From: Bigelowiella natans CCMP2755
Taxonomy: Eukaryota > Protista > Cercozoa
Assembly (NCBI GenBank): GCA_000320545.1
Contig: ADNK01000063.1
Span: forward strand, 11,843 to 75,842
DNA: 64,000 nt
Direction of reading: 5' to 3'
Shown here: positions 16,502 through 50,722 of the stretch, piece after piece
Layout: every line of letters starts with the position of its first letter
Position numbering within the stretch: the stretch's first letter is position 1
Notes under the pieces: model-generated
The model's database searches: none
Seen by the model: the letters and a program-made list of their open reading frames with translations, nothing else
Told to the model about the DNA's origin: nothing
Translations under genes and position numbers: made by a program

Positions 16502-17003
16502 AAATCTTCACCACTTCACCACTCTGATGTGTAAATTAGCAGCAAACATCGACATGTTTCTTTGTTGACAAAGTGGTTGTGTTCCCTGGCTTATGCCCCT
16601 AACCTCCCCAATATGTTCACATGACGAAACAAAAACACGGAGTGCATGCAGTAAAACCAATTCTTGAGTCAAAACCTGTATTTGATTCAATAGCACACTC
16701 TACATGTGCAGGCATTCATTCAATGCATGAAATGCACGACATAAATGCAGCATGAGCGATACGACATCATTCGAAATCAATGGAGTTCTGATATCTAACA
16801 TCTATCGGACACATAGCAATGCGAGGGCACTTTATTCCGCCGCGCGCCACCGCGGAATTTGTTTCGATCATGCTACCTTGAAGATTGGCATGTGGAGCAT
16901 GACGGAAAAAGTGGTGGGGTGTCGATCCAGCTACACATGTACTAGCTGTGCGCGCTCATCAGCAGTGCGCATTGAACAAGCTAGCCATCCAGCCATGGTT
17001 TTG

Positions 17004-17213
17004 GAGCTGGGCACAAATGCTTGAAAACAAATATGTTTGCAAAAACATTTGAACAAACATAAATCAAATACTTGTTTCAAGCGCTCTCGCGCAAGTGTTT
17101 GAACAAATCAAACAATGGTTTGCAGGTGTTTGGTGTTTGCAGACATTTTTTTGTTTGTTCAAATGCATTTGCAAACATTTTTGTTTTCAAGTGTGCCATG
17201 CGATGCCCAGCTC
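17004..17213. mobile_element. MITE family A, near-palindromic copy
   Basis: Terminal inverted repeats GAGCTGGGCA...TGCCCAGCTC plus ~50-bp inverted arms (cttgaaaacaaatatgtttgcaaa / tttgcaaacatttttgttttcaag); no ORF. Confidence 0.8.
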
Positions 17214-18019
17214 TGGCGCTCTGCTAGCTGGCATGTGCAATGCGTGGTGCGTGGCGCGACAAGTGTGGATTGCGCACGGACGATCGATCACAGGCTGGGC
17301 AGCGCGTGCGCATTGCAGTTGCGATGCACAGCACACCTCAGACATGTGCGTCTGTCACGTAATTGCAACGCCACTTTCAGTTCTGCAAAAAATCTTGCTT
17401 GCGAACTTCAGCAGCAGAGCATGCGGCATGCGGTGCACGCGGCTCATTGGCTTGGAACTGCGCTTGGCTTGCATCGTGCCAGCTGGCTGGCATCACTGAT
17501 GTGTGTGTTGTCAAGTGCATGAAATTGCATTTTCATTTTGCAACATTGCCAAATTGCGCTGCTTGAACGTGGAATGTGTGAGCATGTGAGCATGAGTGTG
17601 ACAAAGTGCAGCTGCAGCTCACACGAGCTCCGAGATGCGTGCGCCAAGTTGCAAAGTGCAGGCGGCCCTTGCATGAGCGACACACCCACGCAATTCTGGA
17701 ATTGCACAATCGGCCACGCATGACACACAAGCATGCAAGGTCAAAGCACTTGCGCACAAACGTGCAAAGCTGCAGCAACATTGTGATGGACACGTCGTGC
17801 AATGTGCAACTTGCTAGCTTGTGCACAACAACGTGACTGTGTCCACAATGAGCACGTCCGCAAATCAGCAACAGACATGTCATGTGATGCACATCTCACG
17901 TGCAACATGACTTTGTCCATTGTTCATCATTGCGATGCTCAAGTGTGTGATGAGTGTGTGAGCACGAGTGTGACAAGTGACGAAGTGCAACACAACGCAC
18001 AAATTGTTTCAATGCATGA

Positions 18020-18255
18020 CCATTCGAAAACGTTTCAAATTGTTTGCAAACAATTCCACAGGAAAACGTTTGCAAACAATTTCCGCAAGAAAAATGTTTG
18101 CAAACACGTTTGCAAATGCCTTTTCTTGTTCGAACATTGTTTGAACAAACCAAGTGCTGGTTTCGCGACACGTGGGCATTGTTTGTTCAAATTGGACACT
18201 TGTTTGGAAAAAACAAAAGTGTTTCCAAACAAAAAAAATTGTTTGTGCCCAGCTC
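18020..18255. mobile_element. MITE family A-related partial copy
   Basis: tttgcaaac subrepeats ending in TGCCCAGCTC; 18181-18254 is the approximate reverse complement of 63636-63708. Confidence 0.7.
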
Positions 18256-18618
18256 CACATGGTGTGCCTGTCAGCAGGGGCAGTGCCAGCAGATCGAGAG
18301 TGCTGCTGCATGTCATCGCAAGGCAAACACACGTCATTCTTCGCTCAGTGACAATCACAATGACAATGATGCGCGCGGATGCAGCTGGACACAGCAGAGC
18401 AGCTAGCGACACACAGTCTTGCATGCAACCACATCTGGACATGCGCATGCATGCGTCTAGATGTGGACAGCATGGTCTTGCAAGTGCGTGGTGCGCGTGC
18501 TGGCGTGTCTGCACATGCGCATCCTGTGGTCGGTCATGACCACCAAGCGTGTGCTTGCATTTGTGATGCAGTTCAGTTTTGGTAGCAGTGTGTTAGATCA
18601 TGCTGGGGGGACAAAATG

Positions 18619-18913
18619 AGTTAGCAAGTTCATCATTTTGGCCCCGCTTGGGCCAGTGCGAAAGCAGTTAGCAAGTTTTGGCATTTTGGCCCCGCTTGGG
18701 CCAGTGCGACATGGAAAAAGTTGGGTTGCAAAAGGGAACTTTTGCAGCACAAGTCAGCGAAGTGATGTTGGGAAAAAAATGTTGTTTTTTCAATCCAAAA
18801 ACAGCGTGATGTGATGTGTTCAACTGAGCTAGTTGAAGCAAAGTGAAACGCACACGCAAAAGTCAAAAGACCCGCGTGCGAGCGGTGAAGTCAAAAGACC
18901 CGCGTGCGAGCGG
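18619..18913. repeat. Two short tandem duplications (~47 bp and 28 bp period)
   Basis: agttagcaagtt...cattttggccccgcttgggccagtgcga at 18619 and 18666; aagtcaaaagacccgcgtgcgagcgg at 18860 and 18888. Confidence 0.9.
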
Positions 18914-19515
18914 CAATGTCCTCTTGGGAGCTTGTTTTGGCATGCATGCTCAAGCTCCTCACAATGCATTTTCATCACAAGGGTTTCAGTGTTTTGTTTT
19001 CAATGAGCATTGATTGCATCAACGTGCAATGCAAGCATCAGCCAGCAGCGCATCTGTTGGCTGATTGCACATCCATGCCAGCATGGCTAGCAGCGCAGAT
19101 GGGTGTCAGAGCTGTGGATCGAGTGACTGACCGACATCGTCATGGCGGTCACCAGATCACACGTGAATTTTCACACGTTCTCATTTTTCGAATGAATGGC
19201 GATTTTTGACACGCACCACAGCGCAACGTGCAAAAACACGTGCACGCGATGCGCGCGCGCGACATTGTTGCAGTTGAACGAATGCGTCCGCTTCGGCACG
19301 GCAGATGAATTTCATGTGGAATTTGGGAAAAAGAATTGTGCAAAAATTCCTACACATTCCATCTGGAACCGCAAACCTGCCGTGCCAGCGCGGTTTGAAC
19401 AAGGCTGTCTGACTGTGGGCAAAGTGAAAAAGCTAGCTAGTCAATTTTGCTGCCCATGCCACGTCAACAGAGAATGACCACTCATGTTGTTGTAGCTGCA
19501 CAGCATGCTTTGCAT

Positions 19516-19795
19516 CAGGGCGCCCCAGAGCTCAAGCAGGGGGGCGGAAATGAGGCGGGGTCCTGCGGCAAAGCAGGGTGCACTTTGTGCGCGGTGCAGA
19601 TTTCACTGATTTTCAGAAAAATGCTGTGCTTTGGCTTGGCAAAGTGTGGAACAGAAATGGCTCGCGCGCCAAGAGAAGCCATTTCCGCAGGTCCACTTCG
19701 GCCGGCGGCGCTCGGCAGGGCCTCACTAGCTCAGAGCGCCTGCGATTGCCGTTGCCGGAACCTAGCGCGCGCCCCCATTGAGCTCCAGGACGCCC
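19516..19795. mobile_element. MITE family B, full-length (~280 bp)
   Basis: Imperfect TIRs GGGCGCCCCAGAGCTCAA / TTGAGCTCCAGGACGCCC; internal sequence recurs inverted at 63708-63892. Confidence 0.8.
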
Positions 19796-20764
19796 ATCTA
19801 GCCATCACTAGATCAGACTTGCGCAGAGCTTGTGATGATGATGTCGCATCATGCATGCAGCTGCATGTGCATGCGCTAGCACGTACTAGAGCATGGCATG
19901 ATCGCATGATCGATGTCTAGATGTGTCTACATCTAGATGTTGCAATGTTGCTACGTGCGTGTCCACACATCTCTAGATCTAGACATCCATGGCGACATGT
20001 CATGCATGCACATCGTAACGCATCACAAACGCACATTCTAGCATTCCTAGATTCTGCAGTGCTAGAGTGTTGTGTGCTGTGTCCGCACAGCTCTAGCTAG
20101 AGCTAGACAGTCCTAGCAGATTAGAGTCCTAGAGTCCAATGGTCCACAATGGTGTCTCTTTGTGCAATCCTATAGCACGCATGCATAAGAGTTCGAGCTC
20201 TATGTTGAATCAACTTCCTGCATGATGCGGATTGCGTTGCGTTGCGTGCCGCCAAGCAATGAATGTGTGCGATGCGCCACACGCTACGCGCGCGCAAATA
20301 CACACACACACACACACACACACACGCGCGGCGCGCGCGCACAGTCTCTCACTATCACAACGGTAGATCATGGATATCAAGTATCAACAACGTGAATCCA
20401 AATGAGAAGTTCGTTTTGGAAGTATCAAGCATGCTCTTCATCTATTTCGATGCCTGATTCAGGACTAACTAATTGACCACGTGCAAAATCACCACTCGCT
20501 CTACCCGAGAGTTAACACTAATTGAAATCGTGACAGAAATTGTGCAAGTCGCACAAAACGTTGTGGATGTTAGAGACGGAATTGAACAAACAAATATAAT
20601 GGGTGTTTTTCATTACGCTGGTCCTACTCGCCCATTCCTCCTTCAGTAGCCGAGCATTAATATTGCTTCTTCTAGTGTTAACCTTCAATTGCTAGATCAT
20701 GTTTTAGTGTGAGGTGCAAAGTCCATGTATTTTGTGCCTCCTATTCATGATCTTCCAGTACGTG

Positions 20765-21143
20765 TTATATTTTCATTTTGGACATTCGCCAGTGCCTCCT
20801 TTTGTAATTGAACCTGAAAAGAAGCGGCATCAGCGTGTTGATTTCCAATATTTTTCTTTCATGATATTACGATGTTCCTTTTCCCTGTTTCATATATTTG
20901 ACTCTTAGCCAGCCAGGAACCTCCCGGTTTTTCTTCAATCGCCTATGTAACTTCATTTTTGTCTTGAAAGTTTTGTGGGCAGCCTGGAATCAATGAAATC
21001 ATGAAGTAAGCATCATCAAAATAAATGCTAAAAATAATAACCTGAATTTGATGGTGGCCAGTTTCGTTGTACATATTGCGGAGTGCCATCCACACCGCAA
21101 CGAGGGTACAGAAAAACAGTGCAAGGCACCTGCGAGGCGCCAT
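20765..21143 (-). CDS. RPL39: 60S ribosomal protein eL39 with N-terminal signal-peptide extension (putatively periplastid-targeted)
   Basis: Exons 21143-21042, 20983-20871 and 20813-20765 (58- and 57-nt GT-AG introns) encode MAPRRCLALFFCTLVAVWMALRNMYNETGHHQIQ-AAHKTFKTKMKLHRRLKKNREVPGWLRVKYMKQGKGTSFNYKRRHWRMSKMKI*. The C-terminal 53 aa match eL39 (HKTF, NR..P.W, KRRHWR). Confidence 0.88.
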
Positions 21144-21717
21144 TACATGTGAGAAATAATTTTTCGTGCGAGCCGTGAGAAAGAAAGAATACTGGAATTC
21201 TCTTCTTCGAAAATATCGGACGACAAGAAGAAGACAAATCAGAAACATTCTCCCGCCAATTTTCTATCAAAGTACTGATGAGCCGATGATGAATCTATTT
21301 GTCAAAAATTCTCTCAGTGAACTTTCTATTGTCTCTAGAGAAGATTTCATTTGGTTTTACACCCTAACGGTTTTCACTTCTGGGATTCCCGATAAATATG
21401 GAACAGAGAAGATCTGAAAGCTTGGTACATTTGTCTCTTGGTTCTGTTTCAGCACGCAGACCTTTGCAGATAGACAGCAGCATGATCCCGATGTCGTAGC
21501 ATCAAAACGACATCTATTTATCAAACGGGAACTAAAGATCTTCACAGATCGATCGGAGGGGAGTGTACCTCCTGTCAACTCTGTCAGCTGTCGTTGTGTA
21601 AGGTGGAGTTGTTGGACGGACTACCAAAAGAGAGGGAACAACTGCGCGCTGAAACTGTACTCCTTCCTTTTCTTAATACGAAATCAAGCATCTGAACTCA
21701 GCTCTAAAAAAGCAGAG

Positions 21718-24182
21718 ATGTCGAAGGTCCAATTTTCATCATTTTCGAAAGATTGGAACGATGACCTTGTGTTTTCCCCAGGCTCCATCATCACTTAAGC
21801 AGTCTCACTCACCCTTAAAAATCAACAAACGAGGATGGGTTCTCCTATTTTTGACATTTTCATCATATATTTTGGAAATATGATTCATGCAAACATACAG
21901 CAGGGTAATAATAATAAGGGCTGCTATCCGGCAAGGCATACTTTCTTGGATATTCTGGATGCTCTGTCATTTGGACCCAACGAAGATGGTTTACTTTCTG
22001 ATTTTATTTGGGTGTAGTAGGAACATGACATAATCTCATATTATCAGATTCGAAAAATCGTGCAGAAAAGAGTAAAAGCAAGCTGGATGCTCAGTCTACC
22101 CTTCTTTCATCCGAGGATGATGCGTTTCAAGAATCTCCAAGTACTACCGAATCAAAGCTATGCAATCAAAACGAAACAATTAAACCCAACCCAATTCATT
22201 CAGGGTTTCTCCTCTCGGGATTAGAAACTCGATCAAGCCCATCATCAAGCAGCGCGTCAACAAAGTCCCTCGAGTCTCCTGGTGAAACACTTTGTATCTT
22301 GGTACCAATCTCAGCTCTAAATGCATAAAATATGTTTGGATTTGGATTTACAGAAGGAGGAAATCTTAATCCATGTGCTCCAAAGCTCAGCAATATCCAA
22401 AGACTTAGTGATGGACACGCACTAACTCTCTCTGAAGATATTGGAAGCAGCATGAGCCTAGACCAAAATCCTTATCATCCTCGTCAAGTACGCATAGGGA
22501 GGCCTCGCAAGCGAGCTGTTTCATGGAAACAACAGTTACCAGGACAATCCTATGCTCCACCACAGAACCGAGATAACAAAAGTAAGGAAAATTTAAGACC
22601 AAAAAGGAAAATGAGAAGAATCTTGTGCGAAATTGAGGTATTGACCATTAAGTCTTGTTCGTTTTGGGTTAATTAAACTTGGATTTTATTTTAGGGAGGC
22701 CAGTTCTTCGGAGCAAAAAGCTGTCCGAATAAATTATATAACCAATTTAGTGATTGTGAGAAGGGAAATTTAAAGAGTAAAAGGATAAAAGACTCTTCCA
22801 ATCGCCGTTCATTAGTAGCAGCAAAAACGCCTGCAAATTTTGACTGGATAGAAACATTCTCTCAAAAACTGGAGCCGCCGCAGGAGCAGCAGGAGGAGTC
22901 TTATCGAGAGTTGAAGCTTTGTCATTACTCCACAGCTTCCGATCTTACACATGAAAATAGTTATCAGAAGGAATATGCTCACATTAAATTTGGGCGAAGA
23001 TCGGTATCATCAATGCAAGCTATAGCAGAAGGGAAAACGAAATCCAACAATGGATTACCAAGAGAAATACGTCCGGCAGAACGAACACCATTACCATCAC
23101 CCCCACTAGTAGTTCTGAAACAATCTCAAAGCGATCCATATTCTTTATTAAAACATTCAAAAATGCAGAAGACAGCAATGCATAAAGAACGACAGTCAAT
23201 TATGAAACGCTCTCAAAGCGTAACATTAGCCGGGATGCAAGTAGACATGAACTCATCCACAACCCCCAAATTACCGGTTGTCAAGACAGATCATGAAGGC
23301 GTTCAGGTCTTGAGCCAATATCGTTGTATGTCATATTTGGAATCATTATAGAATCTAATTATAATTACTGATTTTCAAAGGCAATTTCTGCAAGAACTGT
23401 AGCTCAAATCCTAAAGGGAAAATTCTCCCATCTATTCGACAAAGTTATCTTGTGTGACGCTCGATATCCATATGAGTACAATGGAGGTAAGCTATAATCT
23501 TCTAGTTTTCTATACAACTAGATATTTTCCTGAATACATAGAGAGATTGTTTATTTTCTCAGGCCATATTCGGGGAGCTGTGTGCACAACATTACCTAGT
23601 TCATTGGATCGATTGCTGTTCAATAACACTGACATAATGAGTGTGAGTCTGACACATCAGTTTATCTACCCGTATCAAATATCTACTGCCAAGTTCTTAT
23701 GTTCTTTCTGTGGTTGTTGCTTGGTATTGATTGACTTGGAATGTCAGGATGATCCATGCAAAGTGTGTGTAGTAGCTCACTGCGAATTTAGTGCTAACCG
23801 TGGCCCCCGAGCTGTTCGTTACATTCGGAGAAAGGATAGAGACCTTCATGGAATTTCCAACTTTCCCAAACTCTACTATCCTGAACTTTACCTCATGAAG
23901 GGGGGCTATTTGGTAGGAATAACAGTGTTTCGACAACTTTACATTATTTTTGAGTATCTTTTCTTCGCAGGAATTTTACTCTCAGTTTCCAGAATTGTGT
24001 GAACCTCCCGGGCACCTACCCATGATTCATCCAATTTGGCGAGACAGCTGCAAGAGGTAAAAGTGGATTTCACACGTGACGGCAGCATGAATAACATTTT
24101 GAATGCCATTAGGTGGACGAAAGAAACACGAAAGCAGTGGGGTCTACTAAAACGACGCGGAGCAAGGCCAATTCGGGACTGA
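21718..24182 (+). CDS. CDC25: Cdc25 M-phase inducer phosphatase
   Basis: [10 protein letters not shown]|GHIRGA, catalytic [15 protein letters not shown] and [13 protein letters not shown]; long S/P-rich N-terminus; start approximate. Confidence 0.92.
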
Positions 24183-24980
24183 ATGCGTTGCATGACTTCC
24201 AAATCCAACAAGTGCCAACACGTCAAAGTGTTTCCAAGTTCAATTGAATTGTGAAATGTACCAGACGTTGCACAGAAAGAACACTTGCGGATTTGGTTCC
24301 GTCCGCTTGCATCACACGCGATGCGCATGTGGTGCTTCGATCGAAACAAGCATTCGGAATGCCAAAATGGCTAGCTGTGCGTGTGTGTCTCCATCCACCT
24401 TGCGCTGCGCTGACAACTCTCTCATCACCCGCTTCCGGCTAGCTGGCCACGCTGGCACGTTGCATCATGCATCCGATGCGCACACCGCTCTAGCTAGCGC
24501 TGGCTTCAGCAAGCGTTCACACACCTGCGTTTCAAGTTCATGCAGACCTTGCTAGCTTGGTTTGTTCGTCAGTCTAGCAGGAGTTGATGACGGATCAGCA
24601 GCCCCCATTCTAGCATTCCCTCTGATCCTGAGCAATGGCGACTTTGCAATGTGCAAATGTGCCAGCACCACGAATTTTCATTTTTTTTCACGCGGACTTC
24701 GACATTCGCTTCTCCGCACGCAAAGCATCCATCCTGAGCAAGAACTTCCTGATGGCCACGTCCACACGGAGATCAACGTCAGGGACAGCCGAGGGGGTGC
24801 CGAGCAAGACTCTGGTTTTGACAGAATCAGGGGCATCAAAAAATGAAGAGCAAGCAAGGAGGTGCAGGGCCGAAAGCTGCTCTGATGCCAGAACAGTTGT
24901 CGCAGTTGCAAAAGACAAACACAGAGCAATCAGTTTCACCTCCTTCAAAGAGGCTTTTTGTCCCAAATGGAGCAACTTTT
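24183..24980. other. TpA-depleted island directly after the Cdc25 stop
   Basis: Manual count for 24181-24980: 8 TA in 800 bp, 7 in CTAG. Confidence 0.85.
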
Positions 24981-25444
24981 TTTATGTCTTGATGCCAGAA
25001 AAGCAATCATTTTGAAAATTTCACTTTAAAGAATAGCCAGACACATGGCCTGTGAGACTGAATTTCCGTTGAGTACTCGTTGGTATTGCAGTTGACAATC
25101 TGACCGCACAGACAAAGGTAGGGGGGGGGGGGGTAGGCTTAGGGTTAGGGGAAGGTTCGGGTCCACATCCGTTCGACATTGTGAAGAAATATTTCTTTTC
25201 ATTCTTCATTGGGATTATGTCGCCACAGCTGTGTTCGCAGAATGCTCTTGCTGCCCTTCAACACTTCAACACATGAGTCTAATAGTCGTAGCATCGAGGC
25301 CAACCGTAGTATAGGCTGAGTTTCTACAACGGGAACATTGGCTCGATTTAATGGAACCGTTTGCCTTTACTCACATTTTCGTTGATCCGAGGCCTAGACT
25401 GATGGAAATGCTACTGCTGCTTGTATGGTCAGATTCGAACGAGA

Positions 25445-26529
25445 ATGGGGGCAGAGAGCAGCAAAGATAGTAGCGAGGAGAAGACGTGGATTTCACTCGG
25501 CGATTTCGCAGGTCAAGACACTCCTTACTTGTGTCAATGTATGCGTATATGTAAGAGGAAGAGGGAGAATGGCATCGAATGACTGACTGCTAATTGTATA
25601 AAATTTCATCAGACGTTATAAAAAACCGGGAAGAGGAGAGGATGAAGTCGATCTTCGAAATAGCGGATGAAAATCCAGAGGAATATAATTTTCATGTAAT
25701 TTTAACACTAATTCAAAGTTAAATCGAAGTATGGTGAAGCGACCATTTACCGTCTCAATCCTTATGCGCGAATGGAGTTCACCTTCTGAATCATCACACC
25801 CTTGCCTTTTTATCCTGAGATTAGATGAGAGAGAGAGAAAATGTCTATAATACTTCTACACAATTCCTTGATCACACACCCATAGGGATTCTCACCCCTC
25901 GCTATTGCATCGATGCATTCAAACGGAATGTGGGTCATCGATCGCTTTGCAAGAGAAGAGCGCACAAACGAGCCCTCCTCAGTCAAGTGAGGCGATTATT
26001 GAAAGAGAATAAGAGTACAGATCATGATCACAAAGATTGCAAATTCTCCCACTAATAGTGGCGAGAACAATATTCCAAGAACGGGGGGGGGGGGAGGGGT
26101 TAGAAGATGATTCTCTCTTTTCCCTCTAAAATTTTGGCATTCGTTGTCATTCGAGTTTCCTTTGCAGACAAACATCATCGTAGAAGTAGTCGTAATCCGG
26201 ATTTTATTTTGATTAGTGCCATCGTCGTCGATCGTGTTCGTCATCATTGTCGAGAATAATAGTGACTTATTGATTTGCATATGCTAGTCTCGTAGAACTA
26301 GCAAATGAGCTCTCACTCAATGTAGACGAGGATATACTGCAAGCAACAGGGTAGTACTGCTGCTACAGGCTATCTAAAATATCGGCACACCGCACACATG
26401 CATATTCCTTCATACCTTCCGTCGATTATTACCTGTGGATTTTATACGTATGTATTTGAGCGAGTTTCGTTGACTAATCACCTCTATTGTTTCTTGAATT
26501 CCAATGAAAGAAATCGTGTTTCTGCACGC

Positions 26530-26571
<42 letters not shown>

Positions 26572-26929
26572 ATTATATGGCCCATACTCCTCCCCATATA
26601 AAAGTTCCTCCGTTGGGTAGGTTCACACCCATTTCTCTTGCTGTGATGTTCGGCCCTGTCGATTCGGTCAGATCGCTCATTGACAAAGGTGCTACTGCTG
26701 CTGCTGCCGCTGCTAAACGGTGACTTTGTAGTATTGCATCCCATACTGAGGCATACTTCTCTACCACGCAGGTGCGAAACTAGATTTCGTGACTGAAGGC
26801 CAAAAAATATTCTCTCTGAAAAACCTAGCCGAATTTCGAGGGAGCGAAGACATATTGAAACTTCTCGATGAGGACGGGGTGCACGGGCAATGCCACCACT
26901 GTGATGTGAAAAATTGTGTAATTTCATGA
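25445..26929 (+). CDS. Small ankyrin-repeat protein with N-myristoylation-like start and C-terminal CaaX
   Basis: Exons encode MGAESSK..., GFSPLAIASM, G|FTPISLAVMFGPVDSVRSLIDK|GAKLD...LAEFRGSEDILKLL...KNCVIS*. Confidence 0.7.
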
Positions 26930-27380
26930 TCGAGGAGTGAAATGCGTGCGTATGTGTGGTCGAATCTAGTAGTTTTGTTTCGGGTCTCTTTACAATGTAA
27001 GCACAAGCTGTGAAGCCAGCAATATTTACAATGCCACGCTGTCTACGATGGCTGCGGCTATAGTCGGCTATAAATACACGTGTGCATGAGTGCACTTGAA
27101 TTTTGCTAAATCAACAAATGGAAAGTGCGTCGTTGAAAAACAGACTGCGATGTACGTGCATATCATTGCATGCATGCGGTGCATGTTGCTATGTGGGTGT
27201 GCGCATGCAGTCTCGCTCTAGTGCATCAACAATTCATTACATCCGTCTCTCCTGCTGTACACGCCATGAACATACACATATACACATATTAGACGACGGA
27301 TACATTGAATGATTTGTCATTCTTTCAAGCGTCATTCCGCCAAACTACCCGCCTTTATTTGATGGCGTACCAGCATCTAG

Positions 27381-28202
27381 CTACTTACTGAGAATGTAGA
27401 TATTTTCTTTTTCTTGATTCTTTCCTCCCATGGCATACAGTATACGAAAGTCGTCGTCTAGGTACGTCATTCTCCACGTCCCAACCGCTTTCAATTCCTT
27501 TTCCTGCAGTGGAAACCCTAGTAATTCTAACCGGATATTTTTGAACTTAACTCTCCAAGTGCTGGACGACAGATTGTCCCATGTAGCTGAAAGTGTTCCT
27601 TTAAAAAATCCGTTTCCGAGACTGACTATGTTAAGATATTCATCCTTTCCTATATCAACATTTTGTGTGACATCTCCGACAAAAGGTCCGAATTTACCAG
27701 CAGATGAGCCGTCGTTAGTTGTATATAGCAATTTCCACTCCCCTTCAAGAAGGGAAGAGCTTGTCAATTTTCGGGTAGGATTAGCGCTTTCGAGCACTTT
27801 CACTATCTCTGCCACTTGCAGTCTTTTTTCTTGAGATGCCTGCACTCCATTCTGCGTGCCCTTTGTAGCTTTTCGAATGGACTCCTTCAGATCTTCAACA
27901 TCGACATTGGAGAACAAGTTTGGAGCTAGTAGAAAGGACGAAAACAACTTATTCAATGAAAAAGAAGGCGAAGACGCCTCAGTAGCTGATGATTTCAGCA
28001 GCATCGATGTAGATTGGGTACGCCTGTGAATCTTTCTAGGAAGCGGTATCCTCATAGCCATGTTGCCGTGATGCTTGCCGTTGTAACACGTATTCTTCTT
28101 TATTGAACGTAGAGTTGTCGGTAAGGTAGCGACGGGTTGCAGGTAGACTGCGAATACTAGCAAGACCTTTGAAATTCGATTTATATCACTGAACCCAGGC
28201 AT
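27381..28202 (-). CDS. PAP/fibrillin plastid lipid-associated protein with bipartite leader, intronless
   Basis: LESANPT, LLEGEWKLLYTT and MTYLDDDFRI motifs; N-terminal hydrophobic stretch followed by S/R/K-rich transit-like region. Confidence 0.9.
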   Translation of the reverse strand: MPGFSDINRISKVLLVFAVYLQPVATLPTTLRSIKKNTCYNGKHHGNMAMRIPLPRKIHRRTQSTSMLLKSSATEASSPSFSLNKLFSSFLLAPNLFSNVDVEDLKESIRKATKGTQNGVQASQEKRLQVAEIVKVLESANPTRKLTSSSLLEGEWKLLYTTNDGSSAGKFGPFVGDVTQNVDIGKDEYLNIVSLGNGFFKGTLSATWDNLSSSTWRVKFKNIRLELLGFPLQEKELKAVGTWRMTYLDDDFRILYAMGGKNQEKENIYILSK

Positions 28203-29893: not shown

Positions 29894-29925
<32 letters not shown>

Positions 29926-31177
29926 GTTATTGTTATCATCAAAAGAAGGATATAGAGGTCCATAATACTTACTCAAGAATGTGTTTGTGCGATAATTGTT
30001 CTTCAGCCTGAGGTGGAGGTAACAGTGAAAACATCACATGATCGTGTGGTTCTCAAGGCTTCAAATTGTCATATTGAAGGCTCTAAAGCTATCATGAGAA
30101 TGGGGGTGGGTATTACTGTGTCAGTCAGTAAATAATAACCGAAGAATGATTCATATGATCATGTATGCTAATAATCCGTCCATTACCAGCGTCGTCTTCT
30201 TGCTTTCTCTCCAACCTCTCCATGTTGCCTAATGCTTCTAATCGCCCATGATTCTCTCTTCTATTATCTGATCCTCTTTCTTCTCCTACTGTTCTGTCAT
30301 CATCATCATCATCAATAGCTTCACAGGCGTTTCGAATTCGAAGCTGACTCGATGATGCGTTGGATTTCCGATGGAGAAGAGGCAAGACGAAGAAGAAGAA
30401 GAAGAAGAAGAAGAAGAAGAAGATATCTATCCTTGCCAATTGATTTTAATGATTTATCAATGACTCGGCGTTATTTGATTTCGAGTTCCTCCTTCTCCTG
30501 CTTCCTCCATTATTATTTTATTTACACTTTTAGGCCCAGGTAATTATGGATGGAAGCTTAAGTGTGTGGTCAGAAAAACTGCCACCATTCAACATCATGC
30601 CAACGGTAACTATTGTCACAGATTTATAAACAAGTTTTATATCTGTTAGATATACTGTGTATGTTCTCCTCCTCCTTTTTCACCTAGAAGCAGCAGCAGC
30701 AGCAGCAGAGACATATCCTCCATAATTAGACATGATGCACGTATGTCTGCATACTCACATTGTTACGGGATAATACCAAACACGTTACCACGAACATCAC
30801 AGCTGTTATTGAAAACACTATTATCATCATAATCATCATCATTAATTTCTTGCTCTCTACAAAATAGGTCGTTCTCCAGAAAGGAAGTAATGCTGTTCTG
30901 GGTGCTGCAGTAAAAACAATTCAAAGGGTATTATAGTGCAAGCACATATGATGATGATGAGAATGATGGAAGAAGAAGGTGGGCAAAGCGGGAAGATGGT
31001 CGTTATTATGTGCTAGAACAGTATATAATTATTTTGTTTCAGAAATGATGCATTGGTAGAGAATCAAGTGACAAATTGTCGTATTATGCTTCTCCTTCTC
31101 ACCACCTTTCTTCAGATCTTCATGAATAATCTGATGGGGGACTACGAGAAATGGGTAGTAGTAGTTCTAGTACTACC

Positions 31178-31217
<40 letters not shown>

Positions 31218-31530
31218 CAGTGGAGTGAAGTAGTAGCGGTTTGGTAATTGGCAAGGGAAGGGATCATTGTAACCAAGGGGAACTTATTAGCCACAGTTGT
31301 AAAATATGTTGTTGTTGATGCTGAGGATGCTCTATGAAATGTAGACAGCTGAGCGGTAGTAGTAGTAGTGGTAGTAGTATCAGCAACGACTGACTGATTG
31401 ACAGCAATCTGATGCCTATGACTTCTGTATTTTGACGATGTCGTTCTCTTAGGCTACAGACCCAACATATAGAGCAGAAAGAGCAGCCAGTAAATCAGCA
31501 GCAGACGCTCAGAAAACTGTTCCGGTGTGA
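28776..31530 (+). CDS. DUF1997-family protein, plastid-targeted
   Basis: SLEKYMRLPVEQYSM, FLLKVPRLTFF, PEVEVTV, LPPFNIMP, LQKGSNAVL and DYEKW|A exons; leader YLSLVLFVLSIAAII plus transit-like region. Confidence 0.82.
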
Positions 31531-31849
31531 AGCAATCAAAAGCAGCAGCAGCAGTCTGATAGCTACTTATACCGCACATCTCAAATACTAGAACTTCGTT
31601 TTGATGATGCGATGCCGTCGCCTTTAGATCACCTTTATTGTTTATAGATTTGCATGCCATGTTCTGCTCAAACCTTTAACTGCTGAAATATAAGACTAGA
31701 TGAAAGCTGGCGCATATTGTAACACAGATGTAATGAATTAAATTCAATTTGTTCAATGGCCATCCTCATGTTGTGACGACGTCCTTTATTCGCACATCGT
31801 TGCCTGTATGTGATTCAAGACAGGTAACGTTTTATGTTTGTGCGTAATG

Positions 31850-33130
31850 GCGTGAGCATGTGTGGGAGAACATGCAACAGAGCCTTTATGGCTATATTCG
31901 TGCATGCGCGTACGAACATGTTGGCCACATGTGAACACATGTAGTTAGCACATATGTTCTTGTACCCACATGTGTGTGTGTACCTGCACCAAATAATTAT
32001 GATTAGCACATGTGTTCCATTGTTGTTTGTAGCACACATGATCCATTGATGCACATGCTAGCATGCACGTGTTGCGTGACATGCACATCTTCACAAATGT
32101 GCATACACATTTGTGCCATGTGATCATCTTTTCTGTCCGGGAGCGCATGGCGTGAGCACACGCATGCGCAATGCACTTCGTAATTTGCTGCACAGCAAAT
32201 TGAGAGAAAGGGCAGCGTGTTGGAGTGCTTTGCACTCAGCGCGCGAAGTGCTTGCTTGCAGTAGCCAGCGCCAACAGCAGAGAGATCTGCGGGCGTTTGC
32301 AGGCTGCGACAAGCACGCAGCAAGAGGCTGCGAGTGCAGGTGAATTCTGTGCCTGCGACAAGCACGTCGCCGCACATCACCGCATGCAGCTCCTTTGTGC
32401 CAGCAAAGGAAGCAAGCATGACTACCTGCCTCGCTAGCAGCACAATGCATCGCTACGTGATGCATGCAGTTTGGGCACTTTCCCCTAGCTAGCGTGATGT
32501 GTGTGACCTGCACTGCATGCATGCGCAATCAGGTCAACACCTTCAACACAGAATCCAAACAGACCACCGTCTGTCTGCCCCCTCTACTTGCTACTTTGCT
32601 ACTTGTTGTGCCTGCCTCTGCAACACTGCCCGCGCCTAATCTTCCAACAATGTGCATGCACATTTGTGCCATGTGCATGGAGCAGCCATGTTCTTGTGAG
32701 CACACACCAACATGAACTACTGTCCGATGAACTTGCATGTGTCCTAGGCAGGGCACACGAATGGAGCCTTTGTGGCCACTTTGCTAGATTGTGCGCCCCA
32801 AAAAGAACCGCGCGACACTCCATGCAGCATGGCGCACTTTCTGCGCCACATCGCATTCTCATGCATGCACGTGAAAGACTTCACAGCAGAAACGAACAAG
32901 CACGATTTGCAAGCGCTGTAGCCGCGCGCAGCCTTGCAGCTACCACATTGGGAATAATAGACACAGCAATACACAATATATATTACACATATAGTGTATT
33001 GCATGTACGTCTATCATGGGATGCCCACTGCAAAGATTCAATTCATTTATCACATCAGTACGTCTCACACTGCCTCTGATGCTAGTGTGGTGTGTGTGTC
33101 TAGCTACATGTGCACAGGGCACATGTACAT
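31850..33130. other. TpA-poor, TG/CA-rich island between convergent genes
   Basis: Core ~32030-32920 has few TA, several of them in CTAG; Cys/His-rich ORFs in all frames. Confidence 0.75.
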
Positions 33131-33204
33131 GCACATACACATATTTAGACACATGTATGTATGCGCATATGTACATACACTATGTGTGTAAACACACATA
33201 GCGT

Positions 33205-33623: not shown

Positions 33624-33657
<34 letters not shown>

Positions 33658-33738
33658 GCAGATATGTGATGATGGTGTGGTTAATAATCAAGGTGCTGGT
33701 GCTGTTTTCCCTATCATTAGTCTCATTTCACAACTTGC

Positions 33739-33808
<70 letters not shown>

Positions 33809-34058: not shown

Positions 34059-34099
<41 letters not shown>

Positions 34100-34482: not shown

Positions 34483-34523
<41 letters not shown>

Positions 34524-36071: not shown

Positions 36072-36103
<32 letters not shown>

Positions 36104-36949: not shown

Positions 36950-36989
<40 letters not shown>

Positions 36990-41222: not shown

Positions 41223-41255
<33 letters not shown>

Positions 41256-41974: not shown

Positions 41975-42016
<42 letters not shown>

Positions 42017-43228: not shown

Positions 43229-43559
43229 TCTGTTTTTCACTATGAATAATAATGCACAATATGATGGCACTACAATAGATGATTATGACAGCTAGAGAGA
43301 GAGAGAAATAGTTCAGGAAGGAAACGCATAAATGGAGCAAATCGAAACAATTAAGTGTGAGTAACATTATCACGCGTTAATACGGCATGCTTTATCCAAA
43401 TTGGTCAAAGTGAGCAAGTAATAGCTAGACATCTCATCAGAAGTGATTCAAAAAATTGTTGCATAATATGAGCCATATATGAACACTAACGCTTTGAAGT
43501 TTAGCGAGTAGCATATGTAACACGACACAAAGTTTGGAGCAAATAATCTGACATAGCCG

Positions 43560-44400
43560 CGCCGCTTGTAGAAGTGATACTTTCTATATGTATTCCCAGC
43601 TGCAGCACAACAGCTAGGCTACTACGTATACAGCAAAAGCAGAAGTGCTGCACTGCACCATGATGAAGTTTACGCTATGCTGCGGCGATTTCATTTTCAG
43701 ATGGCCCAAGCATGCACATATGCTAGAGGACTGTGAAAGTTTAGACGAATAAATGCCACATTGGAATGGACTGCATCGTGGACTCAGCTAGCTAGCGCCG
43801 TACGTCAGTCGTGTGCTGCATGCATGCGACATGCTATGTAGTATGTGAGACGGATGTGCATGATGATGTGATTATACATATTTTCAATGGTCATCCTAAT
43901 GTAGCGATCTAGCGATGCAAAGCAGCGGCTATGTGTCATGTCAGCTAGTCAGCATTTTGCTGCATGCACACTCACTGCATGATGCGCATGGAGACACCTA
44001 GACATGGCAGATGGTACGTGCACAGTACACGATGTGCATGATGCTTATGTATGCATGACACAAGCACACACTGTTAGACTGCGGTGTCTTGCAGCCGTCC
44101 TCATTCGAGCATCTTTTATAATTTTTATTTAGATCTCATCTCACCTCGTCATCTAAACGGACCCTAAATCCCATTACCACATTGATCACCGCTTCTCTGC
44201 TTTCATGCCTACCTGGCAGGCACAATGTTGATGACATGCTCGCAGCAACACGTAATTGCACGCACTTGCTACTGACAAATATTTGTAATGAAGCTAATAG
44301 AACATCCATGCTTACACGATGCTCAGCACCACAAGCAAGTGCAGCCCATCATCGACACAAAGAGCACGTAGTCGCCCATGAGGAGCGAAAACGCAACAGC
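43560..44400. other. Weaker TG/CA-rich, partly TpA-depleted zone between convergent genes
   Basis: gcatgc, gtgcac and gctagctagc motifs; more residual TA than in the strong islands. Confidence 0.5.
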
Positions 44401-44611
44401 TAGATACCCTCACGATTTGTCTGTCGCTGTGCCGAGTCATGTTTTCGGCGTGCACGGTAGCGAACAAAATCTTCAAGCTAATTTTATAATGATCATAATT
44501 GACTCACCTTGCAGGAAGAAAAGTTACTTCAGATTCGCATCATTCTGGAGCATACCATAATGGCTACTATCTTCATTGCAGGCCGCACATTGGTGTGAAC
44601 ACAACATCATG

Positions 44612-46736
44612 TTATGCATGGGTTGCCTTTCCTGTTTGATCAAAGCCTCTATATTCTCTCCAAACCTCGATAGCAGCGCGATGTACAATAGAATGGCGCT
44701 TTGCAAGACGCTTTCGATTCTGGTCATAACCCCCGCCGATCATCTAAGATAAATCACTCGTTTAAAATAGTAGAACGCCAGAATTATTGAAGAATCTTAC
44801 GCATGAGATCGGAATTCCAGACTGCAGCGCCAAGTCAACAACAAAACGGTCACGTTCGAAAATTCCATCCTAAGATAACATGAATCTTTAGAAGTGATAA
44901 TAATCATAAACGGACATGATAGTATCATATGTAAAATGTAGAACTAACTTCAGTTATGCTTAGTTTTCCTAGTGCATCTCCTTCCCAAACATCAATGCCA
45001 CCAATGTACAAAATGAGGTCGGGCTTAACCTGTAATGATATGGCGATCGAGGTGTACATATCAGAAATTAGCACGATTTTCTTGGTAGTTGTAAAATAAG
45101 ATTTCTTTACTAATGTTAGTATACCTCCTGAATGACACGTGGGAGATGTGTCGTTAACTCCTCCATGTATTCATCATCCTTACATCCTGGATTATCATAT
45201 CGGCTATTTTTTAAATCTGTAGATAAAATAAAGCTTCTCATACATGCATCTTGGAGCACCTTGAGGTAAGCCTATATCGAGATCACTTCTGTCTTGCCCA
45301 AGATATGATAACGATTTCACATTGAATCCAAAAGGGAAGTTTTGGGCGCAGTGCATGGAGAATGTATAAACCGATTGGTCCTCTTTGAAGATTTCAGCTG
45401 ATACGAAGATGCATCATTTCAGAAAGCATATTGTCCAAGATAAGTTCATTCCAACCTGTTCCATCCCCTTGGTGAACATCGCAGTCAACAATAAGGACAC
45501 GTTCTGCCAGATTTTCCTTCTGCATTAGCCTAGCCGCAACAGCTAGGTCGTTTATACATGTGTATCCTGCCCCCCTAATTTACAAATGTGTAGTAATGAT
45601 TTGTGCATTAGCCATTCGATGATTTCAACCAATTAGTAAATGTTCATACAAATCCTTATGATCAACGTTCATACCAATCCTTATGTGCGTGGTGTGTGCC
45701 TCCGCCAACATGCAGTGATAGCCCGTGTTTAAGCGCTAAGCGGGCACTTAATACAGTCTGAAATATACTACAACTAAGAGGGGATTGAGCAACACATTTA
45801 TGTACTTAATAGGTTACCCCCGCCACTTCCAACTTTGTTCGCTTTACAAGCTCCTGGTGGTTTGGTCTTTGTGAAAATCCTAATTAATTAATTAATACAT
45901 GAAATAATAATAATGCGCCACTGGTGATCTATAACTTCAAAATAGGATACCACAAATACTAAAAAACTAAGTATTGAAAAGCCTTCTTCATAACCTGTTC
46001 TTCGCATTAGATCTGGATCCAGAGTTCCGGTTATGAATTCCTGATAATACTTCTTCCCATGCACTAGGAGCATCCACTAGGAAAACAACGATAACAAACA
46101 TATCTTATTTAGGTATTCATAATTTCTTTACTCATCAAATGATTATTACTTCATCTGGAGGGTATTCCGGTTCCACAAAATCGTCAAAAGATCGTACGAT
46201 TCTATGCTCGATTAAAAATTCTGCCAAATCTTCAAACTTCCACATCGCGAAACGGTGACGCTAAAAGAGGACAGAAATGGCTGCTCAATTTGCCTCATTA
46301 AGTAGTGTTGGTGTTTGTTAACCTCTGGCCAAGGAATCGAATATTCTGGGTGATAGATGATAGGTGGCAAGGAATGAAGTCCGTAAGCTTCATTTTCATT
46401 TACGTCGTCGATTTTATCTTCAGGGAGTGCAGGAGTGGAACTACTTCTTCCCGTTTTTTGGAGGAACCTGCGAGGTTGAACGAGCCTTTTCTCGACAACA
46501 GGTAGTGATGATGATAATTGCGCCGCTCTAAAAGACTTGAGAGAGAGGTTACGGCAGCGGCTGGTTGACGAAAGGCACGAAACTAGTGCACAGCAACACC
46601 GAACCAGTGAGTATCGTAGATGGCTCCTGTGTTGCCGTGATAAGCCATTCGATGAGGAAGAATGTGACGGTGTCTGTGCCCAACGATGCAAAGGATGTCC
46701 CAAGTGCAAGCGAATATTTTTATTTAAGGAATGCAT
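44612..46736 (-). CDS. Histone deacetylase superfamily protein (class IV / bacterial-like) with long N-terminal extension
   Basis: HRFAMWKF, GGGTHHA, GYTCINDLAVA, IVDCDVHQGDGT, TFSMH, GDALGKL and VIGGGY. Confidence 0.92.
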
Positions 46737-47506
46737 GGGTATCCTGGAGGGGGGTCTGGCTTTGAAGCACGTCGAAGACACGTGCCTAGGTTGTTGTCGT
46801 CTGTCGTTCTGTAGTACTTCTTGTAATTGTTGTTGTGTGTGTTGGTTGTATTGGTCCTTTTAGGAAGAAAACAAATGCAAATAATCATAACATTTATGCC
46901 GAGAAGAAAGTAGAGAAAGAGGATGATGAAGTAGGAGAAGCTCTGGTGAATCTCGAATAATTAAAAGCAAAAAATCGACTAGAATGCATGAGATGCGACG
47001 TGGAGAAATTACACATATGGATATTATTGACGAACTGCGTATTTATCGTATGGGGGAAAAAGTGGCCTGTGTTATGGTGCGAAAAAGACAATATCATCAT
47101 CTACCAAAAAATCTGGTCTCGCTGATCCTTCGACCCAAGCGAAGAAATGTATTTCCGCCAGTACCCAGGGAATTATAAAAAAGTATTTTATTTTACACAT
47201 TTTCAAATAGACGACAACAGAATATAGTCTTAATTTGCCGCTAGCTATACCTGGCGTGTTTCAGCCCTCGCTTAAAAGTGAACCTCATCCTGTCCTCCCA
47301 CCCTACCTCCGTTCCCTCTCTATAGATTCAACACGTAGGTGCTTACCATCCTGTTTACATATATTTTATATCTTAACTGCTCATCATTTTTTTTCTTGTT
47401 GCCATAAAACCAAAAAAAAAACTTACGCACTCTCGGCACTTCGAACCTTACTTACCTAATGCTTTAAACACGTAACTGTTTCCTCTACTTCATAAAATAG
47501 AAGATC

Positions 47507-49227
47507 ATGAGTCAGCAGGAAAGGAAGAATGAGGGCGGTCTCTCTGAGGAAGCCAAGCGTAAAGCTGAATACTTTGAACATATGTCCTACTATCGATTTA
47601 ATGGACCTGCTGGTGGACTCTCCACTTGGAACATGGAAAATGGTTATCTTGAAGCACGTGTGCGTGGGTTTCGCTCGGGATTTCTCACCGGTGGGGAGTA
47701 CAAGCAGGTAATAATAATGTTATAAGAGGATTACGTTATCAGCTGAATCTTAGGATTATTTTGCTTCAAACGATGATTCCCCTGCGATATAATAACACTT
47801 ATTTGAACATTTGTCTTTGATATCAGTTGATGCAGTGCAACACCCTAGACGAGGTTAAGCTTGCCCTTACAGACACTGACTACGGGCAATGGATCACTAC
47901 AGTTTCTAAGGTGAGTAGGCGGTCGTTACGAAGAAGTTAGAATCCGTGGACAAAAGCCTAATTAATTAGTAATAAATTTGTAATAATACTACGCTCCCCT
48001 CTCTCTCTCTCCCTCCCCCCCTCCCCACATTTTTCTCATTTATCATGGATAGACTAACCCTATGTCCCTTACCGCCACTTACGTTTCTTTGTCGCTATCG
48101 ACTTTTACGCAGGGTGTTGAGGAGAAAAATGATATATACTCCAAAAAGCTAAGCGACGCCTGCCATGTAACAACTTGTATCTACATATATATACTCCAAA
48201 AAGCTAAGCGACGCCTGCCATGTAACAACTTGTATCTATCATAATTGATTTCATCGAATTAAAGTAAATTACCACATAATTAATGCAGAAAAAATTTCTG
48301 GAAGAATTCGAATACCTGAGGATGAATGCAACGGGAGTCATGCAAACTTTTTTGGACATGATCACATATGAGCCTATGATCAACAACTTCTGCAAATTGA
48401 TCATCGCTATCCAAAAAACAGACGAGCCAGAAGAGGTGGTTAAAGCTATCCGTGAGTCTGATCCATTAGGTGCATATCCCCATTTGAACAGCATCGTTGC
48501 TTTTGATAAGCAAGACGATTTGTTAACGGATCTCTTTGATTCGCTTCTCATTGATACGCCTGTATCAAAATACTTTTGGCAATACTTTCTTCCTGAATTG
48601 AGTTCAGAGGATGAGAAGAAAGACGATGCTGGAGCCTTGAGAAAATTTACCACTGAGGTTGAACTGGATGTCATGATGAATATGCTTCAGAAGTACCTTT
48701 TGGAGGATTTCTACCATTATTCCCGTGAAATTGGTGGTGAAACATGGGAAGTGATGAAGGAACTTCTCGAATTTGAAGCTGATCGACGCACTGTAAACGT
48801 TACTGTCAACTCTTTTGGAACACCTTTAAACGAGCCAGATCGACACGACTACGAACGCAAGATGCTTTACCCCAATTTTGGAACCCTCTACCCTGACGGA
48901 CAAACAATTCTTTCAGGGTATGGTCCTAAGCCTGGAGTCTCTGACTTCCAAACTCTTGGAACAGAGTTTAAGTCAAAATCTGTGCGCTTTGCTACAATTC
49001 TTCAAGACGAAGAAAATTTTGTGTATGGAATGCGTCAAGAAGCAGCAAAAATGTATGCCAAGGGATTTGAAGGGCAAAGCCATTATGGTTGTTTTTATGC
49101 TTTCTACAAGCTGAAGATGATTGAGCTCAGAAATCTGAAACTCATCTTCGATACTATAAGCCAGCCTAGAACAGCTGAAGAACGCAGGGCTCTATTCAAG
49201 TCAGTGACCCCACTCTTTGAGGATTAG
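47507..49227 (+). CDS. VMA6: V-type proton ATPase V0 subunit d
   Basis: NGYLEARVRGFRSGFL, LALTDTDYG, EEFEYLR, LEFEADRR, LYPNFGTLYPDG and QSHYGCFYAF. Confidence 0.93.
48132..48238. repeat. 55-bp exact tandem duplication of an exon end plus 5' splice site
   Basis: atatatactccaaaaagctaagcgacgcctgccat|gtaacaacttgtatcta occurs twice. Confidence 0.95.
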
Positions 49228-49429
49228 ATACAATCCTACGTAGACATTTTCGAACTATGAGTAGCCTTTAAGAAATGCTGGAAATCGATGCTGATGTCGA
49301 GTTTCAATATGTTATCCGTCATGAATCTCAATTTATACATGGAAGCCCTCTCCTTACCCCCCCCCCCCTCCCCTTCACTAGCTCGCTCTCTCTCTCTCTC
49401 TCACTCACTCACTCACTCTCCTGAGTTTA

Positions 49430-50650
49430 TATTGTGCATGCAAGCTAGCACGTATGACGTATGATCACAACAATTGCAGTAGCGCATGCATGCATATGTG
49501 ATGCTGCTTCTGTACGTAGCCTAGTTTGTGAACACACATGTACTAGAAGCACACGTGTTCTGAAGCACACATGAGCCTTGCATGTTACATGTGTCCTAAA
49601 TAACAGATATCTTAAAGCGGGTACGCTCTATGTAGCCCTGTTAGGCTACATTTATGCTACATGTACGTATAGCTTTCTAGCTTTGCTCGATGTTCCCACG
49701 CTGCGCTAGACCCAAGCAAGTCATCTAGCATTATTAGTGCAGGCACATTTGTCTCTTATGAAATCTTAAACATGTGATTTTTTTTCTTATAAATGTGATG
49801 CATGACAAGCTAGAGAAAATCATAAAAGACGAGAGAAATAAACCACAAAAGTTCCCGGCGGCTGTGTTTTCAAATTCACTTTTTGATCATGCGTGGCCAC
49901 ACGCCTAGCTAGCTAGATTGCACCGAAATTGTCAGAATTTTCTGCCTTTTTTTGCTCTCCTAGATTTCATTTCACGCAATTCGCCCATTGGAATTCGTGG
50001 GCACATCACATCTTGTCCTTTGTTGCAAGTTGGCACCATGGCGGAGCAGTGGTATGTGCAGCGTGGCACACTTAAAACTTTAGAACTGCGGAGTTTGCTG
50101 GCACTGACCAGCCCTGCAATGCGCACGCAAATGTTGATGTGAACATGCATGCGTGCGGTGCAGATCTAGTGATCCCGTTAGGCCTGCAGTGCGTCTACGG
50201 CCGTCGCTAGGTCGGCATGCTTGATTTCCGTCTTAGTGTCATCATGCACGTGCTTGGCGTCTCATGGAAAGACACCATGTGTACCTCAATGAAGTAGTAG
50301 GCTAGGTCTCTATGCACACCTAAAGGTAGTGTGTAGGTCTCTATGGGCTGTTGCGCACATGCGTCATGTGCAGCGTGCACATTGCAATGTGTGACATTGT
50401 CATGTAAGACGGATGCGTTCACTGATTACATCCGTCTCACAATGTAGCTAGCCGCCCAGCGATCTACTCAGTACTGCCAGCAGATGTGCATGCATCGTCT
50501 GTAATGGCATGGTGCTCTGTGCTGGTGCAGCGCAGTGATATATGCAAATATGTCATGCGCATCGATTATATCGCATGCCATATCAGGCGGTCAATGCACC
50601 TTTCACTAGCTAGCAATTCAACGGTAGATACAATGCTGATAACGAGTTCA
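49430..50650. other. TG/CA-rich, partly TpA-depleted zone between convergent genes
   Basis: gcatgc-, cacatgt- and ctagctagctag-rich sequence between V-ATPase d and the GT-like gene. Confidence 0.55.
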
Positions 50651-50722
50651 GTGTGGTAGCACATCGATGCATCTTTATCATTACCTTACTGTTTTTATGT
50701 AACATCTATAGGCATACGTACA

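Follow-up and report, generated by a model that had tools for sequence, protein, structure and literature searches.

TpA-poor zones beyond gene 3′ ends at a chromosome end of Bigelowiella natans: likely scars of a TpA mutator

Repeat-induced point mutation (RIP) makes TpA from CpA. A mutator working on TpA was described in 2026 from the chlorarachniophyte Bigelowiella natans as an antiviral defence (10.64898/2026.01.13.699255). According to the main text of that preprint, mutation accumulation gave TpA changes to TpG or CpA at about 1000-fold over background in two viral inserts, de novo changes arose in a single-copy, transcriptionally silent insert, the main hotspot was a silent 186-kb insert, and 230 TpA mutations and 124 TpA-depleted clusters were recorded, with transposase and reverse-transcriptase domains among the TpA-poor coding sequences. 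RNA guides were suggested; adenine deamination, by a proposed adenine deaminase, is the preprint's hypothesis. In kinetoplastids base J, a modified thymine, is concentrated where polycistronic clusters are initiated and where they terminate (PMC4150806; see also PMC4344527), and yeast gene ends carry ApT/TpA-rich inverted repeats near poly(A) sites (PMC6420913). Here we analyse a 64,000-bp window of B. natans CCMP2755 (contig ADNK01000063.1), a chromosome end that closes in TTAGGG repeats. We describe its gene layout and gap composition, a gradient of TpA loss beyond gene ends, retention of CTAG, and TA-biased differences in a second copy of a host gene end. We read the TpA-poor zones as probable scars left by the TpA-to-CpA/TpG mutator of B. 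natans, rather than as the termination mark that an initial annotation had proposed.

Where TpA is lost

All strong TpA loss in the window lies beyond gene 3′ ends. With the window divided into 319 bins of 200 bp, and a bin called strongly TpA-poor when its share of TA outside CTAG was ≤0.10, 31/319 bins were strongly poor: 24 of 57 convergent, 4 of 6 tandem and 3 of 4 subtelomeric bins, against 0/231 genic and 0/21 divergent ones. In the zones TpA is down and CpA and TpG are up. The loss is extreme at 17–20 kb (TpA observed-to-expected ratio, o/e, 0.16), 24.18–24.96 kb (0.17) and 63.06–63.92 kb (0.11), moderate at 32–33 kb (0.52) and 57–58 kb (0.56), and barely visible at 43.6–44.4 and 49.4–50.6 kb (0.83, above the median divergent gap at about 0.65), but the second of these contains a core that is depleted. 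The initial annotation had named four zones, all tail-to-tail; those at 17–20 and 32–33 kb stand, those at 43.6–44.4 and 49.4–50.6 kb are weak, and tandem and subtelomeric DNA has to be added to the convergent gaps.

The strongest zone (16950..20150), a mosaic of single-copy and multi-copy sequence, lies within a 4.26-kb convergent gap. The zone at 24183..24960 does begin at the stop of the Cdc25-like gene, as had been noted, but occupies the sole tandem (+/+) gap rather than a convergent one; seven of its eight leftover TA are CTAG. Between the convergent genes G9 and G10 the zone spans 31700..33200, with a core at 32.0–32.8 kb between two RNA ends. The 57–58 kb zone (57050..58300) had been taken for a divergent promoter exception. 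The gap is convergent, because a minus-strand small nucleolar RNA (snoRNA) cluster at 58.47–59.26 kb faces G15, a plus-strand gene ending at 56,851. A weak zone at 43550..44450 separates a CoA-transferase gene (+) from a histone deacetylase gene (−), strands from Pfam, with CpA+TpG o/e at 1.69 over 43.6–44.4 kb, and a weak-to-moderate one at 49420..50650 separates the V-ATPase d gene (+, stop 49,227) from G14 (−, stop about 50,809). The shortest convergent gap (26931..27380) and the short gap between a HIT-like (+) and an Ask1-like (−) gene (6956..7680) alternate in purines and pyrimidines and mostly keep TpA (o/e 0.87 and 0.88, respectively). Beyond the last plus-strand gene, a subtelomeric zone (63059..63922) contains repeat pieces in common with 18.2 and 19.6 kb. 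The telomeric (TTAGGG)n itself (63923..64000, +) has its TA intact; the depletion that had been placed at the telomere is subtelomeric.

Sorting the gaps by orientation, within the window, gave a divided result. By whole-gap TpA o/e, the 7 convergent and the 8 divergent gaps could not be told apart (p=0.56). CpA+TpG o/e separated them without overlap (1.36–1.81 convergent, 0.90–1.29 divergent; p=0.0015), as did purine-pyrimidine alternation (0.53–0.63 and 0.42–0.48; p=0.0003). Counted in 1-kb windows, 4 of 64 reach the preprint's thresholds (TpA o/e ≤0.43 together with CpA+TpG o/e ≥1.52), at 17–20 and 63–64 kb; every other named zone fails on at least one of the two values.

Gene layout sets the frame for this pattern. 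Our model has 17 transcription units, giving 7 convergent gaps, 8 divergent gaps and 1 tandem gap. Strands were assigned from Pfam matches (G2, G3, G4, G5, G8, G11, G12, G13, G17), RNA piles (G4–G10), public proteins (G14, G15) and Rfam (snoRNA cluster); G1 is placed by open reading frame (ORF) only, and several gene starts are approximate. Neighbours switch strand in 15/16 pairs (binomial p=0.0003), which bears out the alternation reported earlier (13/14). Convergent gaps are longer than divergent ones (p=0.02), and promoter gaps are short, 0.4–0.8 kb; a median intergenic length of 960 bp has been reported (PMC13746701). Near-strict alternation together with short promoter gaps leaves long silent DNA only between poly(A) ends, in the one tandem gap and at the subtelomere.

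The loss is graded. In the first gene model, non-CTAG TA in successive bins after stops was 63, 63, 45, 44, 40, 25, 20, 9 and 15 per kb, a fall from 63/kb in the first 200 bp to 9/kb at 700–800 bp; more than 900 bp past stops, where a single gap contributes, it was 0–17/kb. The TA share drops as the convergent gap lengthens (rho −0.88, p=0.009, n=7), and alternation is unrelated to convergent gap length (p=0.53). Depletion is as strong in the tandem gap and subtelomere as in convergent gaps. RNA depth is ≤0.3 in zone cores, two multi-copy bins excepted, and last introns are mixed, with TA shares of 0.23–0.59 in nine genes.

One tetranucleotide escapes. CTAG stands at 3.6–4.1 times background in the strong zones, while the nine other TA contexts fall to 0–0.13, and CTAG makes up 22 of the 37 TA still left in three cores. 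This exemption does not follow a one-sided context rule, because half-sites change in both directions. As a separate observation, AGCTAG/CTAGCT is about 11-fold enriched in zones (48 matches lie closest to a stop, 11 inside genes and 4 close to starts), and four of five matches in a related 11.5-kb contig (L003, below) lie in 3′ gaps. TA conversion by itself does not produce this motif, which is possibly a site of binding or of methylation.

A second copy of a gene end, repeats and an older layer

The 3′ part of G9 (30480..31600, +) has a second genomic copy: DNA depth is about doubled over 30.5–31.6 kb, and it is the TA alleles of the window that appear in the RNA. At least 17 positions distinguish the second copy; of those listed, 12 show A>G or T>C, and a window TpA is the site of 10 out of the 12, where 30% would be expected (p=2e-4). 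The window copy has a TpA o/e of 0.91. At two TpA-change sites in the G9 3′ untranslated region (UTR), the changed base occurred in 0/59 and 0/60 sense RNA reads, indicating that the expressed copy keeps TA. It is thus likely that the second copy lost TA, the direction of change being one that we infer. These differences come from a filtered variant table with 40 variants listed and 42 more unlisted, from contigs that drop variants and from a comparison with no outgroup; DNA contigs from three runs had no other letters in the 24 long pieces listed.

Three further observations concern this region and its neighbours. The listed second-copy differences (30514–31570) are strand-skewed, with nine T>C and three A>G, a small sample; processive one-strand editing would give such a skew. 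At 31727–31760, a short AT-rich motif of very high summed contig depth is present in RNA reads from other loci and may be a common 3′-end element. Finally, a transcript-like contig (L001, 99.2% alike to window 48286–49348) stops 121 nt past the V-ATPase d stop, short of the zone, and two of its nine differences from the window are TA to CA or TG.

The strong cores also contain multi-copy pieces, as judged by contig depth. A likely terminal-inverted-repeat element relic, presumably a transposon, lies at 17005..18254, one of its ends recurring at the subtelomere (63,636), and pieces of the subtelomeric zone are 83–84% identical to segments at 18.2 and 19.6 kb. In the tandem gap, a multi-copy relic (24718–24860, by contig depth) matches two other B. 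natans gene models. The copies elsewhere are transcribed (minus strand) and differ by TG/CA doublets and CG alleles, which hints either at decay of CpG or at a slower step from CA to CG. When metagenomes were scanned with a degenerate motif taken from this repeat at 24.75 kb, 0 loci were found; among viral contigs its ORF produced 23 pattern hits, none of them a relative. The zones contain multi-copy relics, one with an ORF that had no viral match in that scan, and one target is a host gene duplicate. A short palindromic element at 32966–33002 has very high summed contig depth; at 32,986 and 32,988, T makes up >90% of the depth where the window has C, so that the window copy is the TA-to-CA version. 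Single-copy contig stretches inside zones are stripped as well, three of four at TpA o/e 0.13–0.29, with 17 of 26 TA in the fourth being CTAG. Five short tandem duplications inside genes all keep TA, and no repeats were found within 56.8–58.6 kb.

Comparison with a relative separates the TpA loss from an older composition. A scan with a 10-sequence V-ATPase d alignment gave 282 pattern hits that reduced to three loci. L003 (1–11546, 11.5 kb, 61% identity) has five genes, four Pfam-supported and one a long ORF, and switches strand in 4/4 pairs; from its similarity-search rank rather than a tree, it is probably chlorarachniophyte. Orthologues of the inositol 5-phosphatase and V-ATPase d genes both lie on this contig, which is nearly free of introns, but the genes between them are different. 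Its three 3′ gaps alternate at 0.57–0.61 (coding DNA 0.46, two divergent gaps 0.50), have about twofold palindromic hexamers and hold TA at 0.95–1.07 of expectation. Alternating runs ≥10 bp number 6.1 per kb in the window's 3′ flanks, 1.0 in genes and 0.5 in 5′ flanks; the L003 values are 7.5, 0.7 and 2.4. Because transitions leave the purine-pyrimidine pattern unchanged, this layer is independent of the mutator, and the alternating 3′-gap composition would be an older layer, common to a distant relative in which TpA is intact. The window's four weakest convergent gaps have TA shares of 0.70–0.76 of expectation, below L003 (175:340 vs 260:719, p=0.003), which suggests that they are partly converted. 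Introns had been tried as the baseline, implying about one-third TA conversion right after stops; L003 indicates that this baseline is wrong for 3′ gaps, and CpG and GpC are commoner in the zones than would be expected from converting the TA of introns.

Silent DNA as the probable target, and other explanations

The explanation we favour, as moderately probable, is that the mutator acts on silent DNA, which the gene layout limits to the subtelomere and the 3′ gaps, places in which insertions are likely retained as well. The mutation spectrum is that of the preprint; silence as the targeting cue is what we infer. On this account the 3′ gaps would carry an older, orientation-linked layer of purine-pyrimidine alternation and short palindromes. 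The mutator would convert the TA steps of that layer, partly near stops and almost wholly in long gap cores, sparing CTAG. Untranscribed DNA would be attacked, repeat relics included, and insertions would tend to persist in the same silent 3′ gaps and subtelomere. The lack of strand bias, the gap-length gradient, the sparing of CTAG and the TA-keeping expressed copy favour silent DNA over termination, double-stranded RNA (dsRNA) or base J.

Several points weigh against this explanation. The zone after the Cdc25-like stop begins immediately, with TA at 5/kb in the first 200 bp, and transcribed 3′ UTRs are partly converted; both run contrary to strict protection by transcription. Two of the 17 second-copy differences listed run the opposite way (G>A, C>T). 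Gap length is confounded with orientation (p=0.02), and the base is one window (16 gaps) plus one 11.5-kb relative. Hypermutation erodes homology, so the single-copy zone stretches may be old repeats. The RNA run X21, mapped to 15.0–34.9 kb, piles at gene ends with the first mate sense and reads as a 3′-tag library, which would be blind to nascent read-through. G1 and G10 could each conceal a tandem pair, and in the preprint's main text one hypermutable virophage region equals other insertions in expression (10.64898/2026.01.13.699255).

Another possibility, which we hold unlikely and which overlaps with silent-DNA targeting, is that the mutator recognises foreign or repeated DNA that survives only in 3′ gaps and subtelomeres, orientation playing no further role; the initial annotation had raised it as its alternative. 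The multi-copy pieces of the strong cores, the element shared with the subtelomere and the relic matching other gene models agree with it, as do the stronger depletion of longer gaps (more insertions) and the transposase and reverse-transcriptase domains in the preprint's TpA-poor coding sequences. It accounts less well for the equally stripped single-copy stretches, the lack of repeats found within 56.8–58.6 kb and the fact that even the shortest gaps lie below L003 gaps in TA share. Moreover, the signature is present in a duplicate of a host gene but in none of five short duplications inside genes.

A more far-reaching reading is likewise unlikely: chlorarachniophyte chromosomes might be built of near-strict head-to-head and tail-to-tail pairs whose 3′ gaps form a conserved, alternating termination or boundary domain that loads the B. 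natans TpA editor. All DNA past poly(A) sites, host or foreign, would then be rewritten, and the immunity of CTAG would report enzyme specificity or a protective modification.

That termination or convergent read-through guides the mutator, with dsRNA, small RNAs or R-loops at 3′ ends recruiting a deaminase, seems to us improbable. In its favour, CpA+TpG o/e is higher in all 7 convergent than in all 8 divergent gaps, CA+TG is elevated as early as the first 200 bp past the stop (15 stops against 16 starts, p=1e-4), the conserved 3′-gap composition could recruit a factor, and the preprint itself proposes RNA guides. The near-stop excess is, however, partly the ancestral alternating layer. If the mutator were guided in this way, its effect should peak in short convergent gaps, where overlap would be expected most, and should be missing from tandem gaps. 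What was seen is the reverse, which disfavours it: depletion is least in the shortest convergent gaps, and the tandem gap and subtelomere are among the most depleted DNA. Nor was TG/CA strand bias seen in four distance bins oriented by sense or in 11 segments of the zones (p>0.06 throughout). The preprint's main hotspot, moreover, is a silent insert.

A base-J-like modified thymine marking convergent strand-switch regions and telomeres, and causing T-to-C change at TpA, is highly improbable. One-strand T-to-C change is indistinguishable by sequence from A-to-G change on the other strand, yet divergent gaps lack the signature and telomeric repeats keep TA. We know of no TpA-specific mutagenesis by base J, and our literature search found no paper joining Bigelowiella, JBP and thymine. 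Zone positions do resemble those of J at termination sites and telomeres, but J also marks initiation and ends polycistronic clusters (PMC4150806), whereas the window's genes alternate singly and have their own 3′ RNA piles. The initial annotation's base J, termination or dsRNA reading is not favoured: the loss matches the published TpA hypermutation, is weakest at stops and in the shortest convergent gaps, and shows no strand bias. The least likely explanation is that no targeted mutator acts outside viral inserts and that the gaps are shaped by selection for 3′-end DNA structure or by GC-biased gene conversion: zone CpG and GpC above the prediction from TA conversion of introns, the conserved alternating layer and CG in the other copy at 7/40 listed variants speak for it, but it leaves unexplained both the near-total TA loss in nine contexts with CTAG kept and the TA-specific differences of the duplicate.

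Taken together, the initial observation is partly confirmed and its interpretation partly supported, the link to 3′ ends being cleaner than was then held. The mutator was already known; what appears to be new, on the basis of one window, is its placement, a host-derived target, the exemption of CTAG and the conserved layer of the gaps. Graded loss beyond 3′ ends, an expressed and a second copy of one host gene end, and the CTAG exemption give three handles on the mutator, and the exemption is something that any candidate enzyme or protecting mark has to reproduce. If silence is the cue, the mutator would edit silent DNA in general and push its GC content up, a mirror image of RIP. Near-strict alternation with alternating 3′ gaps in two distant chlorarachniophytes, L003 being so assigned by similarity rank, is a separate feature not found in the literature searched. 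That literature, which included few subscription papers and not the genome paper, also yielded no positional rule, CTAG exemption or alternating 3′ gaps. In the preprint's main text the terms CTAG, telomer-, base J, thymine and gene orientation are absent, and converge- occurs once, of evolution; what we say of CTAG and of position may be touched by its supplementary tables.

Neighbouring features and known systems

Around the zones lie an inositol polyphosphate 5-phosphatase gene, G4 (10052..16501, +, start approximate; Pfam Exo_endo_phos2; RNA pile at 16.3–17.0 kb, +), a PAP-fibrillin gene, G8 (27381..28202, −; Pfam, minus-strand RNA pile), and an ankyrin-like gene, G7 (25351..26930, +; RNA pile at 26.3–27.6 kb, +; Ank match under the cut-off). 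A ribosomal protein L39-like gene, G5 (20765..21143, −; Pfam Ribosomal_L39 on two exons; RNA pile at 20.3–21.0 kb, −), encodes a hydrophobic N-terminal extension that resembles a signal peptide, and the protein may therefore be targeted to the periplastid compartment. The Cdc25-like gene, G6 (21834..24182, +; RNA pile at 23.6–24.3 kb, +), keeps the name given in the initial annotation, which leans on what we take to be the catalytic motif; single exons gave no Pfam support for this label or for the PARP-like one, also from that annotation. The box C/D snoRNA cluster (58473..59259, −; Rfam and boxes) comprises SNORD36, a SNORD49-like gene and a tandemly duplicated C/D candidate (58,694–58,801 and 58,936–59,044, 94% alike), with Rfam scores of 42.2 bits (above the gathering score) and 30.2 bits (E 1e-4, below it). 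It displaces a plus-strand gene at 58.6–59.15 kb in the first model, which had 13/16 switches. Two internal TTAGGG units lie by a G run at the tandem gap edge (25139–25150); a putative minus-strand RNA gene with a telomere-template-like 12-mer at 25.0–25.3 kb was not supported (folding z +1.05, no Rfam match near threshold). No tRNA genes were found in the window. B. natans has a haploid nucleus, for which assay for transposase-accessible chromatin (ATAC) and kethoxal-assisted single-stranded DNA (KAS) data exist (PMC8887012); DNMT6 is treated in PMC9998398, and further related literature is available (10.1101/2025.11.19.688996; PMC12730881).

Like RIP of ascomycetes, the process seen here involves dinucleotide-specific transitions that degrade repeats (PMC2621366). 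The direction is opposite, since RIP changes C to T (CpA to TpA) and the zones lose TpA. RIP also mutates both copies of a repeat, whereas the window's expressed copy keeps TA, and the main target in the preprint is single-copy. Kinetoplastid base J has a similar position, at termination regions and telomeres, but belongs to polycistronic directional clusters, whereas the window switches strand at nearly every pair and seven genes in the RNA-mapped stretch have separate 3′ RNA piles. J is found at initiation as well, and the window's signature, a footprint and not a base, is absent from 8/8 divergent gaps. The yeast 3′-end inverted repeats share the enrichment of short palindromes and alternating steps at gene ends; they are AT-rich and local to the poly(A) signal, whereas B. 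natans alternation includes GC, CG, CA and TG steps and fills 0.45–4 kb gaps. The closest match is the B. natans TpA hypermutation itself. The species is the same by protein identity (for a V-ATPase d exon, identity to the protein is 99.7% in B. natans and 95.8% in B. longifila, and the G14 and G15 protein clusters are named as B. natans), the dinucleotide signature is the same, and 17–20 kb falls within the cluster thresholds in our own 1-kb framing. The difference lies in the target, which in the preprint is foreign or viral DNA, whereas the window's signature grades into ordinary 3′ gaps and also marks a host gene duplicate.

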